From Acinetobacter phage Acj61: a stretch of 64,000 nucleotides of DNA. The notes under the pieces are model-generated. The model had not been told where the DNA came from and searched no databases. It saw nothing but the letters and a program-made list of their open reading frames with translations. Position numbers and translations under genes: made by a program. The stretch lies in sequence record GU911519.1; one strand, written 5' to 3'. Positions 3,486 to 48,755 of this stretch are shown piece by piece. Position 1 is the stretch's first letter, and the number at the start of each line of letters is the position of its first letter.

Positions 3486-3527
3486 TTTGATAGGACCATT
3501 ATACCATGAATCCTATCAAAAGTAAAC
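3486..3527 (-). promoter_or_regulatory. PeSL-like early promoter cassette with inverted repeat
   Basis: On the minus strand, GTTTAC-N18-TATAAT with TTGATAGGA...TCCTATCAA flanking the -10; identical 42-mer at 33174-33215. Confidence 0.55.
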
Positions 3528-5067: not shown

Positions 5068-5126
5068 TTTGGTCTCCTTCAATTCTTTTAAAACCTTCTT
5101 AGCTAATTTGAGCCATTTGGATGTTT

Positions 5127-5170
5127 GATTTGATAGGACCATTATACAACAGTCCTATCATAAAGTAAAC
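5127..5170 (-). promoter_or_regulatory. PeSL-like early promoter cassette with inverted repeat
   Basis: GTTTAC ... TTGATAGGACtgttgTATAATGGTCCTATCAAA on the minus strand. Confidence 0.5.
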
Positions 5171-5176
5171 TGCTTT

Positions 5177-6628
5177 TTAAAATTTAATTTGATCTGCTAA
5201 ATCTTCCAATTCGGATCGTGATGCAGCTTGAACTCGATGAACTTTGTTTAGATGCTCTTGAGTTGTTTGCTGAGCATGAGAGATTTCCATTTCATGATCA
5301 CTTGCAGCCGGAATCTTTGGAGCAGTTTCACCGTCAGGTTCAACCCATCGTTGATTGCCTTTCTTGACAACTAATGTGAACTTGTTATTGATCATCTTAT
5401 CACCATAGCGTGATTTGAGCTGTTTGATCAATTGAAGTCCTTGTTGTGCAAGTTCTTCTGTTTCAATGACACCTAACATGAAGTCAGCTGTATGTACAAG
5501 ACCTGCAGATTCAGCAACATCACTCATTGACATGTCTGATGCATCCCATCCACCACGAGTAGTTTGAGCTGCTGACCAAATCAATGTGTTTGTGTCAAAC
5601 GCTAATGCACGAAGTTCTTCGGCAATCGCTTTAACTAATGTGTATGAGTTTTCAGTGTATTGTTTAATACGACATGAACCACAAATACCTAAGTAGTCAA
5701 TGATGATTACGTCAGGCACAAAGCCTTTCTTCAATTTCAACTCGTTGATTAATGCTCGGAATGTGTTAGCATTAGCTCCACCAGTTGCATATTGTTTGAT
5801 GTACAATTGTCCAAGTACGTTAGCTTTTCTCCAACGTTCCATCTTAGACTTGTACTCTGGGTACGAGATTTTGCCATCATCAATATCGTCTAATGTGACA
5901 TCTAACAAGTTAGCATCGATACGTTTAGCACATACCTCTTCTGCCATTTCCATTGTGATGTACAAGACGTTTTTACCAGTCTGCAAATAATCTGCTGCTA
6001 ATGTACAAAGACCTAACGATTTACCAACGTTCGAACCGGCAAGTAAGATGTTTAATGTAGCATTCTCTGCTCCACCTTTAGTGATTCTGTTCAAAATAGG
6101 AAGTTTGAATGGAATCTTGCGTGTTTTGTTTTGATAAGATAACCAACGAGCTTCATAGTCATCCATCCAGTTGTGACCAACTGATGAGTCAAAGCAAACA
6201 CTTAATGCATCGCGCATGATGTCTGGAATTGCACCGACATCTTGAATTTTTCGATTTCTCTGTTCTGGTGGAAGATCAGCATTCGTTTGAATTTGAATAA
6301 TTCGAGATGTTGCGTTGTACATTGCTACCTTTTGAATGTACTTCTCGGTTTCTGGGATTAACCAATCACAGCTTTCTACTTGATCAGAAAGAGAGTTCAA
6401 AAGGTCATTTGCGCCTTTAAGTTCAACTTCGCCTGCACGTGAATTTGATAGTGCAAGATTCAAAGCTACTTTAGATGGCACACCATTATAATCGTTTACA
6501 TGTTTCCGAATTGAGTTATACAAAATTCGTGCCGGTCCTTTCTCGAAGTAGTCTTCATTGAGATATGGCCACACACGTCCAAAATAGTCTTGATTGGCGA
6601 CTAATTGCCCTAAAATCACATCGATCAT
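5177..6628 (-). CDS. 41: Replicative DNA helicase gp41 (DnaB-like)
   Basis: Near-colinear match to T4 gp41 (YFGRVWPYL..., Walker A AGSNVGKS, C-terminal ...LKF); start chosen at MIDVILGQL with a GGTGG RBS. Confidence 0.9.
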   Translation of the reverse strand: MIDVILGQLVANQDYFGRVWPYLNEDYFEKGPARILYNSIRKHVNDYNGVPSKVALNLALSNSRAGEVELKGANDLLNSLSDQVESCDWLIPETEKYIQKVAMYNATSRIIQIQTNADLPPEQRNRKIQDVGAIPDIMRDALSVCFDSSVGHNWMDDYEARWLSYQNKTRKIPFKLPILNRITKGGAENATLNILLAGSNVGKSLGLCTLAADYLQTGKNVLYITMEMAEEVCAKRIDANLLDVTLDDIDDGKISYPEYKSKMERWRKANVLGQLYIKQYATGGANANTFRALINELKLKKGFVPDVIIIDYLGICGSCRIKQYTENSYTLVKAIAEELRALAFDTNTLIWSAAQTTRGGWDASDMSMSDVAESAGLVHTADFMLGVIETEELAQQGLQLIKQLKSRYGDKMINNKFTLVVKKGNQRWVEPDGETAPKIPAASDHEMEISHAQQTTQEHLNKVHRVQAASRSELEDLADQIKF

Positions 6629-17500: not shown

Positions 17501-17542
17501 TTTGATAGGACCATTATAACATAGTCCTATCAAAAAGTAAAC
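17501..17542 (-). promoter_or_regulatory. PeSL-like early promoter cassette inside the gp43 split island
   Basis: GTTTAC-N18-TATAAT with flanking TTGATAGGA/TCCTATCAA. Confidence 0.5.
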
Positions 17543-18267: not shown

Positions 18268-18598
18268 GATTCAATTGCATGTCAGAATGAAGTGACTGCT
18301 GAATCAATTGAGCAACAAATGCAATCTCAGATTCTTTGTTGGCTCGAGCGTTGATAGTAACTTCTGCATTTCGTCGAGCCAGATCGATTGCAGAAAACCG
18401 AGCTTTGTAGCGAGGCTGTGTAATGGCTTTCAATAAACCAGGTTGCCATGAAATCGTGAAGCCAGATTTGATTTCAGCAATAATGAACATACTAGTCTCG
18501 CATGACTGCGTCACGCAGGCTTCGCCTTTCTCATTTTTGTAAATCATTTTTCTCGCTCCAAGATTTTCGTACAGCAAAATCGTAGTCTTTGCTAGCAT
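18230..18598 (-). CDS. Hypothetical protein
   Basis: 122 aa. Confidence 0.45.
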   Translation of the reverse strand: MLAKTTILLYENLGARKMIYKNEKGEACVTQSCETSMFIIAEIKSGFTISWQPGLLKAITQPRYKARFSAIDLARRNAEVTINARANKESEIAFVAQLIQQSLHSDMQLNHAIAQCFWEIGV

Positions 18599-18983: not shown

Positions 18984-19223
18984 TTTATACTATTCAGGCT
19001 TATAGCACTCTTCCGTTGTAAATATTTTTGCCAACTTCAGGAGGATAACTTTTGAACTGTTTACGAGTCACCACATCTTAAACACTTTGTGTAACGCATA
19101 GAGAATTTGTATGCATTGCTTTGAGTTAGTCCACCGCCTTTAACTCGTTCGGTCCATTGGTCCTAGTGATGAAAGATTTCTTCATGTTCGACTGTGTGTT
19201 TGCACATAAGTTGCTGAAGTATT

Positions 19224-29492: not shown

Positions 29493-29900
29493 TTATGTCT
29501 TTGGTAACTTGTCTATCGGTTTGATTTCATCGGCTTTCCAAACTTTACCTTCAACATATGATTTGAACACAAGTTCTTCAGATTCTGACACACGTTTCAA
29601 ATCTCCAGAGATATCTACAGAGACATACACAATTTCACCGTTGCGAACACAGATTTCGCCTAGACGTTGACATTGGTCATTGTAGATCGTCGCAATTAGA
29701 TTTGAATTCGTGCGAGTTTCATATGACAAGATATGAACGTACCCAATAACAGTAGGCTCAACAATGGTTTCTTCAATGAATAACCACTTTTTCTTAGTGA
29801 CTAACTGATTCCATTGTAAGGCGTGAAAGCCTTGATTAAGAGATTGTAGTCGTTTGATTGCACTTAACATATCATACTCCAGTTTGTTTTGATAGTTCAT
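29493..29900 (-). CDS. Hypothetical protein
   Basis: 135 aa. Confidence 0.5.
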   Translation of the reverse strand: MNYQNKLEYDMLSAIKRLQSLNQGFHALQWNQLVTKKKWLFIEETIVEPTVIGYVHILSYETRTNSNLIATIYNDQCQRLGEICVRNGEIVYVSVDISGDLKRVSESEELVFKSYVEGKVWKADEIKPIDKLPKT

Positions 29901-29902
29901 TA

Positions 29903-29945
29903 TACCACAAAAGACAGTTTGAAGTAAACTGCCTTTTTCAATTAA
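29903..29945 (-). promoter_or_regulatory. Terminator-promoter cassette: hairpin with GTTTAC in the loop, followed by TATAAT
   Basis: Minus strand AAAAAGGCAGTTTACTTCAAACTGTCTTTTGTGGTATAATG; a near-identical copy (G-A changed to G-C in the stem) at 36568-36612. Confidence 0.45.
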
Positions 29946-30244
29946 TTTTGTGGTGGGTCAACATCGTATCCCATTTCGTATAACGTTGACTGCAAATTTT
30001 TGATTCGTACTATGTTGTCGTCAATGAATACGACAGGGTACATGATTTGTCGGTTAGGAAACTTTGCTCGTTTGACTAATGAATCTATTAACTCGGTGTT
30101 GTACACAGGGAAGTCATCTTCACCTCGAGTCACCACCTTATGAAATTCAAATTCAATTCCAGCCTCACTGAACAATCGTTTTGCTGCTATGCAGCCTCCA
30201 CATCGAAAATCTGATTCGTCGACTCCATAAATCTCAGCTTTCAT
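29942..30244 (-). CDS. Glutaredoxin-like protein
   Basis: CGGC redox motif near the N-terminus; 100 aa. Confidence 0.55.
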   Translation of the reverse strand: MKAEIYGVDESDFRCGGCIAAKRLFSEAGIEFEFHKVVTRGEDDFPVYNTELIDSLVKRAKFPNRQIMYPVVFIDDNIVRIKNLQSTLYEMGYDVDPPQN

Positions 30245-32086: not shown

Positions 32087-32893
32087 TTATGATTTAGCAT
32101 CAAGGAGTGAACCACCCATTAATGCGAAAATTCGTTTGTTGAGTTCAGGCAACGGATGTACTCGATTTGTATCGACCGACTTAGGATTCACATTTAGCTG
32201 TACACATGCTTCTTGGAATGATTCAAATCGATTGCCGTAATCTTCACGTAAGAAGTTTTCACGTTCTGTGTACTCATGCCAAGTCCCTGTGCAACGACCG
32301 GTATCACCTTTGTGAGCTGTTGAACGATCGTACTTGTAATAGTGTTTAAATGGATACGCTTCGAAATCTGGCCCTAATGTGAAAACTGCTTCATAACCTT
32401 TTGTGAATGTACGTCCAAGTACTTGACGATACTCTCCACCTTGAGTAAGGTACATCTCACCGATTTGATATGTGAAAGGTGAAACGTATAACTCTTTCGT
32501 TAAATTGCCATTAGCGAATTGAATGATAATTTCTTCGATAAGTTTGTATGAACGCATCGTTAGTGCACCTTCACCGAATACTACATGATGTCCAGTGTTG
32601 TAATTCTTAGCGAATTCTTGTGCAAGCTGAATGATGTCAGTATCATATGCACCTGTGTTGATCATACGCTGTAATTCGCTATAGATGTCTTCGATACATT
32701 CATACGTGTAAAGAGGTTCTATGTCATGAGTTTCAAGAAGCTCTTGAGGGTTGTAGATTGGCTCGCCATAGTAATCATTTACTAAGCGTGCTTCATCTTC
32801 AGATACCATGATGATATGCTTGGCAATTCGGATTCTACGTGAACCATCAAATTTAGGACGTAAAACATATTCGCGGTTGATTAAAAGTTCCAT
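32087..32893 (-). CDS. Hypothetical protein
   Basis: 268-aa ORF. Confidence 0.5.
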   Translation of the reverse strand: MELLINREYVLRPKFDGSRRIRIAKHIIMVSEDEARLVNDYYGEPIYNPQELLETHDIEPLYTYECIEDIYSELQRMINTGAYDTDIIQLAQEFAKNYNTGHHVVFGEGALTMRSYKLIEEIIIQFANGNLTKELYVSPFTYQIGEMYLTQGGEYRQVLGRTFTKGYEAVFTLGPDFEAYPFKHYYKYDRSTAHKGDTGRCTGTWHEYTERENFLREDYGNRFESFQEACVQLNVNPKSVDTNRVHPLPELNKRIFALMGGSLLDAKS

Positions 32894-32920
32894 GTGAATT
32901 TCCTCATTTCAAGTTAAGTT

Positions 32921-33147
32921 TAAGCATCTTTACGAGCAGTACCAGATTTACCAAAACGATCAACGTATGCATCAGTGATTACGTTAGCCCATTTAATTGC
33001 GGTTGATGTTGATTTGCAATCTTGGCACTAGCTACAGCGCAAGCAACTCGAGTCTAGACTTCACGTTCAGCCAACTCAAATTCAATGCTGACGTTGTGAT
33101 TAGTGGTTTTAGGTGAAACGTTATCAAAAATATTATCAGCGTTCATG
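32921..33147 (-). pseudogene. Disrupted small gene: a 30-codon N-terminal ORF and a separate C-terminal reading frame, separated by a segment carrying TAG in all three frames
   Basis: ATG at 33147 gives MNADNIFDNVSPKTTNHNVSIEFELAEREV then stop. The downstream frame ...CQDCKSTSTAIKWANVITDAYVDRFGKSGTARKDA ends at 32921. Minus-strand 30-mer CTAGACTCGAGTTGCTTGCGCTGTAGCTAG (plus coordinates 33028-33057) carries TAG in three frames, with adjacent palindromes ACTCGAGT (XhoI) and AGTCTAGACT (XbaI). Confidence 0.4.
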
Positions 33148-33173
33148 TCATTTCCTTTTAAATGGATGTTTGA

Positions 33174-33215
33174 TTTGATAGGACCATTATACCATGAATC
33201 CTATCAAAAGTAAAC
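33174..33215 (-). promoter_or_regulatory. PeSL-like early promoter cassette (exact copy of 3486-3527)
   Basis: 42-nt identity with the 3486-3527 copy. Confidence 0.55.
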
Positions 33216-33454
33216 TACTTTTTGCAATAATGATCAATTAATTCATTACAAAGTTCGTGGCTAATATCGATCTTGTAACACTCATAGATCGTTGAGGGCA
33301 GATAACTGTTATGTTCAGTGTAACCATGAGATACGATGAATCTCTTAATGTTATCCTTTAACTTTTTAGGTGCTCTACGAAAATATTCATCTATAGAGCA
33401 CTTGTACGTACGTTTCTCCCAGCGATTTCGGCATTGACGTTCTGAAAGGTTCAT
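33215..33454 (-). CDS. Small Cys-rich hypothetical protein
   Basis: 79 aa. Confidence 0.45.
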   Translation of the reverse strand: MNLSERQCRNRWEKRTYKCSIDEYFRRAPKKLKDNIKRFIVSHGYTEHNSYLPSTIYECYKIDISHELCNELIDHYCKK

Positions 33455-35471: not shown

Positions 35472-35545
35472 GATAATTTATCCATGTTAAGATGATAGTT
35501 CAATTATACACCAAAAAGGGAACCGTGTAAACAGTTCCCTTAAAA

Positions 35546-36567: not shown

Positions 36568-36612
36568 ATTATACCACAAAAGGCAGTTTGAAGTAAACTG
36601 CCTTTTTAAATT
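36568..36612 (-). promoter_or_regulatory. Terminator-promoter cassette (copy of 29903-29945)
   Basis: Same about 40-nt sequence. Confidence 0.45.
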
Positions 36613-39481: not shown

Positions 39482-39778
39482 CTACCTCAATTGGCTATCT
39501 TTTGAGCCGCGTCGATTGTAATAAGATTTGTGAACAGCGTCATGTTCACATTGATGTTTAATGCAGTACTGGACTCCTGGGACAGCCTTTCGTCTGCCTT
39601 CAGGAATAGGCTCATCACAATCAAGACAGAATTCTTCAGATTCACGCTTAGAAGCTAGTTCGAGTTCAAGTCTTGCCCAGTCAACAGCATCATCAATTGT
39701 TGCTTTGTTGGTTTCGAATACTGGATCGTTAGGTCCCCATCCGTTCATGATAATTTCCTCATTATTGCTTAAAGACAT
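39482..39778 (-). CDS. DksA/TraR-family C4 zinc-finger protein
   Basis: CLDCDEPIPEGRRKAVPGVQYCIKHQ CxxC-x17-CxxH pattern; 98 aa. Confidence 0.55.
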   Translation of the reverse strand: MSLSNNEEIIMNGWGPNDPVFETNKATIDDAVDWARLELELASKRESEEFCLDCDEPIPEGRRKAVPGVQYCIKHQCEHDAVHKSYYNRRGSKDSQLR

Positions 39779-39822
39779 TATACTACAAACGGAGAACTAA
39801 GTAAATAGTTCTCCGGAATTAA

Positions 39823-44384: not shown

Positions 44385-44688
44385 ATATTCTCCTAAAACT
44401 GGTGGCCAGCTCTGTGATGTAATACGCTATGCGCTTCCTTATACTAAATGACGATAATAGTATTTATTAATTGTACCATTTATCGAGTTCTTCGTCAGCA
44501 CCCTTGCAGGTGAAGATGAATCCAAAGACAAATAATCCAATTCCTAAAATGATTGAGAGACAAACCCAAAATGCAATACTCATAACATTCTCAACATGAT
44601 TAAAGGTTCATTATACTCTATTTGAGCAACAACGTAAACCATATAATGTATATATTATATACAACCTGTAGAGACGCAAAAAGGACAA

Positions 44689-47119: not shown

Positions 47120-47196
47120 TGGCAGAATCGCCTTCGATTCGAACGAAGATTAACGGGGTTGGAGCCCGTCGTGGTACCATTACACTAGCGACCTAT
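47120..47196 (-). tRNA. tRNA-like, anticodon CCA (Trp); acceptor stem imperfect, possibly a pseudo-tRNA
   Basis: Anticodon arm ACGGG-CTCCAAC-CCCGT, T arm CTTCG-TTCGAAT-CGAAG and D-loop AATGGTA are present. The 3' acceptor strand GCGATTC pairs poorly with 5' AGGTCGC. Confidence 0.35.
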
Positions 47197-47200
47197 AATT

Positions 47201-47276
47201 TGGTGCACGAGACATGATTCGAACATGTGACCTGCTGCTCTTCAGGCAGCCACTCTACCAACTGAGTTACTCGTGC
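47201..47276 (-). tRNA. tRNA-Phe (GAA)
   Basis: GCACGAGTAACTCAGTTGGTAGAGTGGCTGCCTGAAGAGCAGCAGGTCACATGTTCGAATCATGTCTCGTGCACCA; canonical cloverleaf; CCA encoded. Confidence 0.8.
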
Positions 47277-47282
47277 GTTATT

Positions 47283-47356
47283 TGGTAGCGATATCCAGAC
47301 TCGAACTGGAACCTTTGGGTTATGAGCCCTATGTGCAACCTTTACACCATATCGCG
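47283..47356 (-). tRNA. tRNA-Met/Ile2 (CAT)
   Basis: Anticodon loop CTCATAA; T arm TCCAG-TTCGAGT-CTGGA; CCA encoded; 1-72 pair mismatched. Confidence 0.6.
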
Positions 47357-47362
47357 ATAATT

Positions 47363-47436
47363 TGGAAGTCGCAAAAGGGATCGAACCTTTACTAACAGAG
47401 TCAAATTCTGTGGTGCTACCATTACACCATGCGACA
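47363..47436 (-). tRNA. tRNA-Gln (TTG)
   Basis: Anticodon stem-loop ACAGA-ATTTGAC-TCTGT; T arm AAAGG-TTCGATC-CCTTT; U1-U72. Confidence 0.65.
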
Positions 47437-47527
47437 ATTGATAGTTTTTGATCTGCTGAACTATAACAGCAGCTCGACAGTAAGTTCATCGAGTCTCAAG
47501 AAGTGTATTTCTACACTTAGACAAATT

Positions 47528-47603
47528 GGTCTCCCTAGTTGGATTTGAACCAACGACATCTTCTTTCCAAAAGAAGTAGGCTACCAGACTGCCCTATAGA
47601 GAG
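47528..47603 (-). tRNA. tRNA-Pro (TGG)
   Basis: CTTCT-TTTGGAA-AGAAG anticodon arm; GTTGG-TTCAAAT-CCAAC T arm; CCA encoded. Confidence 0.8.
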
Positions 47604-47659
47604 ATAACAAAAATAATGGATTAGTGAGCATTGTAAAGAGGCAAATCCATATCTGAAAT

Positions 47660-47735
47660 TGGTCGTCGAGACATGATTCGAACATGTGACCTGCGGATTA
47701 TCGGTCCGTTGCTCTACCAACTGAGCTACTCGACG
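47660..47735 (-). tRNA. tRNA-Ile (GAT), with unusual C33
   Basis: Perfect acceptor stem CGTCGAG/CTCGACG; anticodon loop CCGATAA; T loop TTCGAAT. Confidence 0.65.
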
Positions 47736-47830
47736 GGAGGTGAAACTGGGATTTGAACCCAGGGCCCCATATCACTATGAGACGGTAGTTTTCAAGACTA
47801 CTGCAATAAGCCAGACTCTGCCACTTCACC
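47736..47830 (-). tRNA. tRNA-Ser (TGA), type II, CCA not fully encoded
   Basis: GGTGAAG acceptor; anticodon arm GTAGT-CTTGAAA-ACTAC; long variable arm; T arm CTGGG-TTCAAAT-CCCAG. The 3' end is ...TCC, shared with the first nucleotide of the next tRNA. Confidence 0.65.
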
Positions 47831-48034
47831 AAAATTCTGTGATAGTTTTGTTTATGTAACGACCAAGCTCTATCAACTTCGCCAATCATTCAAAAGAATG
47901 ACAACATTTTTCAATTCTCACTTGAGGTGGAGGAACACCTTGTTAGGACAGCTCCAAAACGTTCTAAAGTTTCGTAAGGTATCCCGAGCTAAATCAGTCA
48001 TTGCGCTTATGGCTATGATTCAACTACTAACATT
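47831..48034 (-). ncRNA. About 200-nt non-tRNA spacer inside the tRNA array; candidate small stable RNA
   Basis: No tRNA fold found and no credible ORF; T4 carries two small stable RNAs (species 1 and 2) in its tRNA region. Confidence 0.25.
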
Positions 48035-48110
48035 TGGCTCCCCAGACACGGATCGAACGTGTGACCCACAGATTAACAGTCTGCTGCTCTACCAACTGAG
48101 CTACTGAGGA
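48035..48110 (-). tRNA. tRNA-Asn (GTT)
   Basis: TCCTCAGTAGCTCAGTTGGTAGAGC...CTGTTAA...TTCGATC...CTGGGGAGCCA. Confidence 0.8.
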
Positions 48111-48143
48111 AGAAATTGTTTAATTTATTATAATTATTTATAT

Positions 48144-48218
48144 TGGTTGGACCACACAGATTCGAACTGAGACTAACGACATCACAAATCGCGGTGCTAA
48201 CCATTACACCATGGTCCA
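48144..48218 (-). tRNA. tRNA-His (GTG)
   Basis: Acceptor TGGACCA/TGGTCCA; anticodon loop TTGTGAT; T loop TTCGAAT; A73-CCA. Confidence 0.7.
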
Positions 48219-48226
48219 CATCAAAT

Positions 48227-48302
48227 TGGTACTCTTATCGGGACTTGAACCCGAGTTTTCAACGTGAAAGGCTGACGTCCTAACCGACTAGACGATAAGA
48301 GC
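48227..48302 (-). tRNA. tRNA-Glu (TTC)
   Basis: Anticodon arm TCAGC-CTTTCAC-GTTGA; T arm TCGGG-TTCAAGT-CCCGA; CCA encoded. Confidence 0.75.
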
Positions 48303-48308
48303 AATGTT

Positions 48309-48394
48309 TGGTGGGGCCGGTGAGACTTGAACTCACAGATGCTTTTGGCGTCGGATTTACAGTCCGATGGGGTTACCAATTTTCCTACGTCCCC
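48309..48394 (-). tRNA. tRNA-Tyr (GTA), type II
   Basis: 86 nt; anticodon arm TCGGA-CTGTAAA-TCCGA; long variable arm; T arm GTGAG-TTCAAGT-CTCAC; CCA encoded. Confidence 0.7.
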
Positions 48395-48410
48395 GTAGTA
48401 ATTCTTAAAG

Positions 48411-48481
48411 TTCTGGCACGAGTAATCGAAACTCGGTGACTGGAGTACAAAACCAGCATAATACCACTATATGATGCCAGA
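48411..48481 (-). tRNA. tRNA-Thr (TGT), no encoded CCA; flanked by a 12-13-bp extended inverted repeat
   Basis: Acceptor TCTGGCA/TGCCAGA; D arm CATA-TAGTGGTAT-TATG; anticodon loop TTTGTAC; T arm CGAGT-TTCGATT-ACTCG. The 3' trailer is CTT instead of CCA. Confidence 0.55.
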
Positions 48482-48594
48482 ACTTTAAGAACTATGTTGT
48501 TTAGTTGATATAGACAGTATATCATACTTTTCCTAACAGCATATTGATTTGCTGTTGGGGCGTGTGTTTCTATAATTATATTTATACAACAATC

Positions 48595-48670
48595 TGGAGG
48601 CGTCAACAGGACTCGAACCTGCATCGACGCGGATTTGCAATCCGCCGTATAACCATTCTACCACAACGCC
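48595..48670 (-). tRNA. tRNA-Cys (GCA)
   Basis: Anticodon arm GCGGA-TTGCAAA-TCCGC; T arm GCAGG-TTCGAGT-CCTGT; CCA encoded. Confidence 0.7.
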
Positions 48671-48678
48671 TTTAATTT

Positions 48679-48755
48679 TGGAGCCCCGCATGAGATTCGA
48701 ACTCATATAAGTCGCAATAGAACTACGATGCCTAATCCAACTCGGCCAGCGAGAC
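48679..48755 (-). tRNA. tRNA-Arg (TCT)
   Basis: Acceptor GTCTCGC/GCGGGGC with two G-U pairs; anticodon loop GTTCTAT; T arm ATGAG-TTCGAAT-CTCAT; CCA encoded. Confidence 0.6.

Follow-up and report, generated by a model that had tools for sequence, protein, structure and literature searches.

A short locus on the minus strand of Acinetobacter phage Acj61 (GU911519.1) raises the question of whether foreign DNA has been placed in a small gene or whether the gene has decayed where it stands. Within the window, by which we mean the whole 64,000-nt stretch analysed here (positions 32001-96000 of the Acj61 genome), a preliminary description drawn from the letters alone had noted a small ORF that stops at an amber codon and resumes in a different frame beyond a 30-nt segment, and it had offered a natural pseudogene, a recombination scar and an engineered stop cassette as explanations. 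Alignments with relatives and five wild contigs favour the first of these and refute the other two: the locus is very probably a natural pseudogene of an uncharacterised accessory gene of the family phrog_13068.

Results

Reading frames at the locus

The whole pseudogene covers 227 nt (32920..33146, minus strand), an extent set by comparison with the intact homologues, by DNA alignments and codon by codon. It opens with a stub ORF of 30 codons plus TAG (33054..33146, minus strand), as had been described, with the ATG at 33146-33144 rather than starting at 33147 and the TAG at 33056-33054. The encoded 30-residue peptide, MNADNIFDNVSPKTTNHNVSIEFELAEREV, is identical to the GenBank hypothetical protein Acj61p119 (ADG36084.1 / YP_004009736.1), and the 268-aa neighbour is identical to Acj61p118. 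A Shine-Dalgarno-like AAGGA (33153..33157, minus strand) lies 6 nt before the stub ATG and is kept in relatives. The reported change of frame is also real: a second minus-strand frame reads ...DCKSTSTAIKWANVITDAYVDRFGKSGTARKDA, its last codon ending at 32923 and its TAA occupying 32922-32920, so that the end previously given as 32921 falls inside the stop codon. In the ORF listing of the window, no start codon was found for this C-terminal frame.

The 30-mer CTAGACTCGAGTTGCTTGCGCTGTAGCTAG lies at 33028-33057 on the minus strand, where it had been placed, and the sequence does contain everything ascribed to it, namely CTAG at both ends, TAG in three frames and the XhoI and XbaI palindromes, which are ACTCGAGT (33046-33053) and AGTCTAGACT (33051-33060). 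The 30-mer and each palindrome are single-copy in the window, and the 30-mer had 0 matches in shuffled sequences. Folding the RNA of the pseudogene region gave a structure no better than those of shuffles (z = 0.03).

The gene is intact, with 75 codons, in relatives

A search of metagenome protein clusters with the conceptually repaired 75-aa protein found seven related clusters, of which P0001-P0004 encode the full 75-codon protein; the 95 aa called for P0004 result from over-extension of the start site through the promoter cassette. Full-length homologues read MNADNIFDNVSPKTTNHNVSIEFELAEREV-W-TRVACAVASA-N-DCKS(T/A)STAIKWANVITDAYVDRFGKSGTARKDA. The gene sits between genes of 79 and 268 aa in contigs L002, L003 and L004, with the same arrangement within contig reach in L005 and L006, and L001 ends short of the upstream gene. 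The intact orthologue that the preliminary description had proposed seeking in close relatives is thus present, as a 75-codon gene at the same position, and the sequence in question lies inside the relatives' intact ORF, a result which had been named in advance as counting against a cassette. Among the intact copies dN/dS is 0.12-0.27, which indicates that the parent is a real protein-coding gene.

When 1.8 billion representative proteins were searched with a profile, 51 small proteins came up that share the core VW..A.CAVA.ANDCK....A..WAD..L.AF..RF, with Trp31 conserved to at least 90%; conservation across the family extends over roughly positions 24-69. The phrog_13068 profile is matched by 40 of 45 family members (P0001 with E = 2.6e-9) and by the repaired conceptual 75-aa translation from Acj61 (E = 1.5e-4). 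At the Acj61 locus itself there is no intact core, the Trp codon being TAG and the core being split over two frames, and by its sequence we take the locus to be a dead member of phrog_13068 and not a functional one.

The intact product is predicted to be a two-helix hairpin: an AlphaFold2 model of an intact homologue, based on the family alignment, places helices at residues 16-39 and 47-65; its block-mean pLDDT is 89-94 for residues 21-60, and its confidence is low for the first 20 residues. The Acj61p119 stub covers this low-confidence N-terminus and part of helix 1, within which it ends, and most of the conserved core is missing from it. For the 75-aa protein we found neither a Pfam family nor a sequence match in the PDB, and Foldseek hits in BFVD and the PDB were limited to uncharacterised phage proteins, one of them from Vibrio phage nt-1, and non-significant helical matches. 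Distant sequence matches occur in KVP40-like Vibrio phages.

Other searches were less informative. Using megablast and blastn, no close relative was found among the GenBank phages (133, Acj9 and Ac42 included), because the Acj61 record is itself absent from that collection; the only matches were to the promoter cassette of ~70 nt and, at ~73% identity, in the DNA polymerase gene. Queries of tblastn with both raw peptide fragments gave nothing useful, and searches with the 268-aa neighbour (IMG/VR) and with the small-gene alignment (IMG/VR and JGI metagenomes) gave pattern hits, none of which was confirmed as a relative. Proteins of 362 aa that clustered with the peptide of the 30-mer are unrelated and represent a clustering artefact.

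Both neighbours of the pseudogene are intact. Acj61p118 (phrog_30047; 32087..32893, minus strand) has the same length in relatives that carry it whole and has its own ribosome-binding site, GAGGAAA, 7 nt before its ATG. The 79-aa gene (33215..33454, minus strand), assigned to phrog_4452 with the label 'anti-restriction nuclease', ends in TAG directly ahead of the promoter -35 element. The gene order is conserved, with products of 329/330 aa and 79 aa followed by the small gene, products of 268 aa, 92/93 aa and 109 aa, two pin-like genes and endonuclease VII. Farther along, L004 (5676-5927) and L007 (5503-5754) have an extra 83-aa gene in the interval from the endonuclease VII gene to a 100-aa gene; in the window these two genes overlap by 4 nt at ~30238-30244, without the 83-aa gene. 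The 79-aa gene of L003 was called as 98 aa (639-935), which proved to be the gene caller reading through the TAG stop and not biological read-through. For two distant homologues of the 79-aa protein, P0058 and P0059, the contigs end before the locus and carry no information on the allele.

Two lesions, and a 30-mer made of native codons

In alignments with contigs L001-L009, only two inactivating differences separate the window from all intact relatives. One is the deletion of the T of the Asn42 codon AAT, between 33021 and 33022 on the minus strand, where the window has GCCAA-GATTGC and the relatives have GCCAATGATTGC; it shifts the remainder of the gene into another frame, and with it the relatives' 228-nt, 75-codon gene becomes the 227 nt of Acj61. 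The other is an amber TAG in place of the Trp31 codon TGG (33054..33056, minus strand), the changed base being 33055, which is A on the minus strand of the window and G in all relatives that retain Trp31. The lesions are at most 34 nt apart and neither lies in a homopolymer run; the substitution is inside the 30-mer and the deletion 5-6 nt downstream of it. Relative to L001 the window has 8 synonymous differences and 1 non-synonymous difference. With so few non-synonymous changes the copy still looks 'selected', which fits either a recent inactivation or the spread of one allele by recombination.

The 30-mer begins at the third position of codon 30 and ends at the second position of codon 40; in the frame of the gene it codes for (V)-W*-T-R-V-A-C-A-V-A-S. 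Against the intact L002 allele it matches at 29 of 30 positions, frame 1 past the TAG reads TRVACAVASA in exact agreement with the homologues, and codons 31-40 are kept in every intact relative aligned. As judged from these alignments, the 30-mer is native coding sequence with nothing inserted, and the earlier statement that the gene is 'disrupted by a 30-nt segment' between two frames cannot be upheld, the segment being the gene's own codons 31-40. We also considered an insert of 26 or 29 nt, whose removal restores the frame and gives a plausible 65-aa protein, and rejected it on the grounds that the homologues are 75 aa long and contain the segment.

The amber codons in three frames and the XhoI and XbaI palindromes exist because native codons have combined with a single G-to-A change. 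The XhoI site CTCGAG corresponds to the conserved Thr-Arg-Val/Ala codons ACT CGA G(T/C)T and is kept in all relatives, and the XbaI site TCTAGA and the first CTAG arise from the G-to-A change. The remaining two TAGs fall outside the reading frame, in GCT GTA GCT AGT (Ala-Val-Ala-Ser), and the off-frame TAGs in GTAGCTAGT are found in all intact relatives but one. Across the window XhoI sites are not avoided (18 found, 8.5 expected). Counts in the window also show that CTAG is strongly avoided (45 found, 225 expected), as is XbaI TCTAGA (2 found, 21 expected), and that TAG is the stop of only 2 of 62 long minus-strand ORFs.

Fourteen tRNA genes lie at 47124-48755 on the minus strand (Trp, Phe, Met, Gln, Pro, Ile, Ser, Asn, His, Glu, Tyr, Thr, Cys and Arg), and none of the 14 is a suppressor with a CUA anticodon; TAG serves as a stop codon. 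The positions of tRNA-Cys (48595-48670) and tRNA-Pro (47527-47603) in the window, plus 32000, equal the published Acj61 coordinates, and 14 tRNAs were also reported there (PMC4177764).

The damaged allele recurs in wild genomes

Ten more contigs, from separate JGI and ENA samples, were found by searching with the upstream 79-aa protein of the window. Five of them, from five samples and each with flanking differences of its own, have both lesions: L013, L016 and L017 (99.5%, 99.8% and 97.6% identity to the window, respectively) carry the TAG and the 1-nt deletion, and L015 and L019 (95.5% and 96.7%) carry E22D and R28C in addition. The recurrence of the lesions in five independent contigs shows that they arose neither by sequencing error nor as a laboratory artefact. 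Close homologues do not vary at E22 and R28, and changes at such residues are what relaxed constraint predicts. The window, L013, L016 and L017 are identical across the gene, without further decay, in a comparison that offers few sites.

The other five contigs extend the series. L018 (97.9% identity) has the 1-nt deletion only, with TGG at Trp31, and because it has the deletion without the amber codon, the frameshift probably came before the amber codon, an order based on this single, truncated contig. In L014 (94-95% identity), a single low-coverage scaffold, the whole gene is absent: window positions 32918-33147 have no counterpart, and, at a short stretch of similarity between the two leaders, that of the promoter passes straight into that of the 268-aa gene. 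L020, L021 and L022 (93-94% identity) end 29 nt past the 79-aa gene, short of the small gene. Several Logan contigs (L024, L025 and L020-L022; one of 22.7 kb) end in or just past the promoter cassette, and a repeated element that breaks assembly would explain where they stop.

More distant lineages have independent lesions, consisting of a 1-nt deletion near codon 51 in L007, a 2-nt deletion in codon 43 in L008 and an in-frame deletion of 18 nt in L009. Wild genomes therefore display the gene intact, with the frameshift, with frameshift and nonsense codon, with further substitutions, and deleted. The lesions observed in the small gene are all at codon 31 or beyond, a bias that is partly an effect of ascertainment, because several relatives were found through the N-terminal peptide. 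The genes on either side showed no real lesions in these contigs; the 268-aa gene looks split in L014 only because its scaffold contains a run of N there.

The upstream promoter cassette

A sigma-70-type early promoter cassette lies upstream of the stub (33174..33214, minus strand), with TTTACT and TATAAT at a spacing of 17, a TG extension and a 10/12 match. The -35 box (TTTACT) occupies 33214-33209 and the -10 box (TATAAT, TG-extended) 33191-33186, and the arms TTTGATAGGA (33208-33199) and TCCTATCAAA (33183-33174) enclose the -10 box in a stem-loop with 10-bp arms and a 15-nt loop (fold z = -3.1). The 38 nt of 33177-33214 recur without a change at 3489-3526, and related copies are found at 5141-5169 and 17513-17541, all on the minus strand; the family follows the pattern GTTTAC-N17-TATAAT with TTTGATAGGA and TCCTATCAAA around the -10 box. 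In L004 (2695-2755), L005 (4003-4063) and L006, the cassette at this place is 96.7% identical to window 5118-5178 and resembles that copy, not the same-position copy at 33166-33226, which suggests from sequence that cassettes may be exchanged between loci.

The preliminary description had called this element a PeSL promoter lying directly upstream. It is indeed a repeated early promoter with a stem-loop, but its layout is unlike that of published PeSLs. As in RB49 and phi1, a strong sigma-70-like early promoter is combined with a stem-loop, the cassette is repeated in the genome ahead of small accessory genes, and a relative has a different copy at the same place. The stem-loop of the RB49/phi1 PeSLs is a G/C-rich (GGGG...CCCC), terminator-like hairpin beside the promoter (PMC2839356, PMC4122927), whereas the 10-bp arms of the Acj61 cassette are A/T-rich and surround the -10 box. 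PeSLs in Acinetobacter phages are not described by Arbiol et al. 2010 (PMC2839356) or Comeau et al. 2014 (PMC4122927). By its sequence the Acj61 cassette is broadly PeSL-like.

The window has ~15 early-type promoters on its minus strand. A second type among the early promoters has a stem-loop that straddles the -35 element (e.g. GGCAGTTTACTTCAAACTGCC) and occurs on the minus strand at 36568-36597, 29899-29928, 35503-35531 and 39777-39805; its layout is closer to that of a combined terminator and promoter.

Discussion

Loss of a small accessory gene

The reading that best accommodates these data is that the ancestor of Acj61 had an early gene of 75 codons, flanked by the 79-aa gene and Acj61p118. 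In the Acj61 lineage one T was lost from codon 42, giving the frameshift, and, probably later, a G-to-A transition turned the near-invariant Trp31 codon into TAG. The early promoter presumably still fires, translation from the AAGGA and ATG would yield only the 30-residue stub without the conserved core, and the 134 nt downstream of the TAG, as far as the original stop, would now be an untranslated leader of the Acj61p118 mRNA. Acj61p119 is accordingly the stub of a dead 75-codon gene and not a small protein-coding gene, and its annotation is to be corrected to that of a pseudogene stub. If the pseudogene reading is true, infected cells should contain no peptide from ...DCKSTSTAIKWANVITDAYVDRFGK.

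The strongest of the competing ideas, though still very unlikely, is that the 30-residue peptide, or the transcript of the remnant, has acquired a role in its own right, as a micro-protein or as a leader that tunes Acj61p118. The promoter, the ribosome-binding site and the first 30 codons are unchanged in four copies, and every observed lesion spares those codons, as would be expected if the stub mattered. The position of the lesions is nonetheless largely a matter of ascertainment, and the stub has been altered at E22 and R28 in L015 and L019 and wholly removed in L014. Most of the stub also falls outside the family-conserved part, and it is its first 20 residues that are modelled with low confidence.

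We consider it highly improbable that the lesions are errors of sequencing or assembly and that the real Acj61 gene is intact at 75 codons. Two lesions within 34 nt of a tiny gene whose copy is otherwise well preserved might raise that suspicion, but an error would have to recur, twice over, in five contigs that derive from different samples and projects (JGI and ENA) and have their own flanking differences, at sites outside homopolymer runs, and in a region whose flanking genes are intact and of the lengths seen in relatives.

Equally improbable is programmed recoding, in which amber read-through combined with a frameshift, or a bypass, would still produce the full-length protein. In T4 gene 60, a coding gap of 50 nt is bypassed during translation and is absent from the protein, and the gap has matching GGA take-off and landing codons and a stem-loop. 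The Acj61 locus resembles this superficially, being in a T4-like phage and having a sense codon followed by UAG and a continuation downstream in another frame, and its retained promoter and ribosome-binding site would be in keeping with continued expression. In Acj61, however, the 'gap' codes for conserved residues that are translated in the homologues, which leaves nothing to bypass; no codon that matches the GTC of the take-off site resumes the homologous frame; GCC AAG ATT offers no slippery heptamer, no structure beats shuffles, and the tRNA set contains no suppressor. The frameshift-only allele of L018, the extra changes of L015 and L019 and the deletion in L014 look like decay and not like a maintained signal. 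The locus does not share the mechanism of gene 60 and is not a member of its class.

Least credible of all is an engineered stop cassette, linker, marker or recombination scar inserted in the small gene, for which only appearance speaks (TAG in three frames, CTAG at both ends and two window-unique palindromes): the 30 bases, save one G, sit in intact genes of uncultured relatives, where they code W-TRVACAVAS; the Acj61 gene is one base shorter than theirs, not longer; the XhoI site is common to all relatives and the XbaI site is the product of a point mutation; Acj61 was isolated in the wild, from sewage in New Orleans, with Acinetobacter johnsonii as host (PMC2993671), and has no reported engineering; the same allele occurs in five metagenome contigs; the 30-mer has no exact match in IMG/VR; and the 0.2-4.5% divergence of those contigs speaks against contamination from an engineered stock. 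The misleading impression that foreign or engineered DNA is present at the locus is thereby removed.

Relation to known cases

The pseudogene has much in common with the ORFan pseudogenes of the hyperplastic regions of T4-like phages, being a small early gene behind a repeated early-promoter cassette that is present, damaged or absent in close relatives while its neighbours are intact. Such a pattern of gain and loss has been described for RB49/phi1 and other pairs (PMC2839356, PMC4122927). The published cases are mostly whole-gene insertions, deletions or replacements between cassettes, whereas the Acj61 locus also shows intermediate stages, with point lesions, in wild genomes. At the level of the single base, the change from Trp TGG to TAG by a G-to-A transition that truncates the protein is like that in T4 amber mutants. 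Those mutants were selected in the laboratory as conditional-lethal changes in essential genes, with suppressor hosts (PMC2993671); in contrast, the Acj61 change is natural, is found in several wild genomes, affects a dispensable gene that had apparently been frameshifted beforehand, and is in a phage that encodes no suppressor tRNA.

The biological weight of the locus is small, and its value lies in displaying successive stages of gene loss in wild phages. Because loss is repeated and independent, the phrog_13068 family of helical hairpins is marked as having a dispensable, possibly host-dependent, accessory function. Among ~15 sampled lineages there are four or more independent disabling events, namely the 1-nt deletion of the Acj61 clade, the 2-nt deletion of L008, the 1-nt deletion of L007 and the whole-gene deletion of L014, to which L009 adds its in-frame deletion; ~2 kb of flanking genes on the same contigs have 0. 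It is a doubtful, though not negligible, proposition that the small gene has been repeatedly selected against and has not only drifted. If that were true, the small early protein would be harmful on some Acinetobacter hosts, for example by being sensed by a host defence system, and the dead alleles would be natural escape mutants.

Elsewhere in the window, stretches of at least 240 nt free of ORFs of 45 codons or more occur at 624-1022, 18268-18530, 18984-19223 and 44385-44688, and these could be more decayed genes, regulatory regions or RNA genes.
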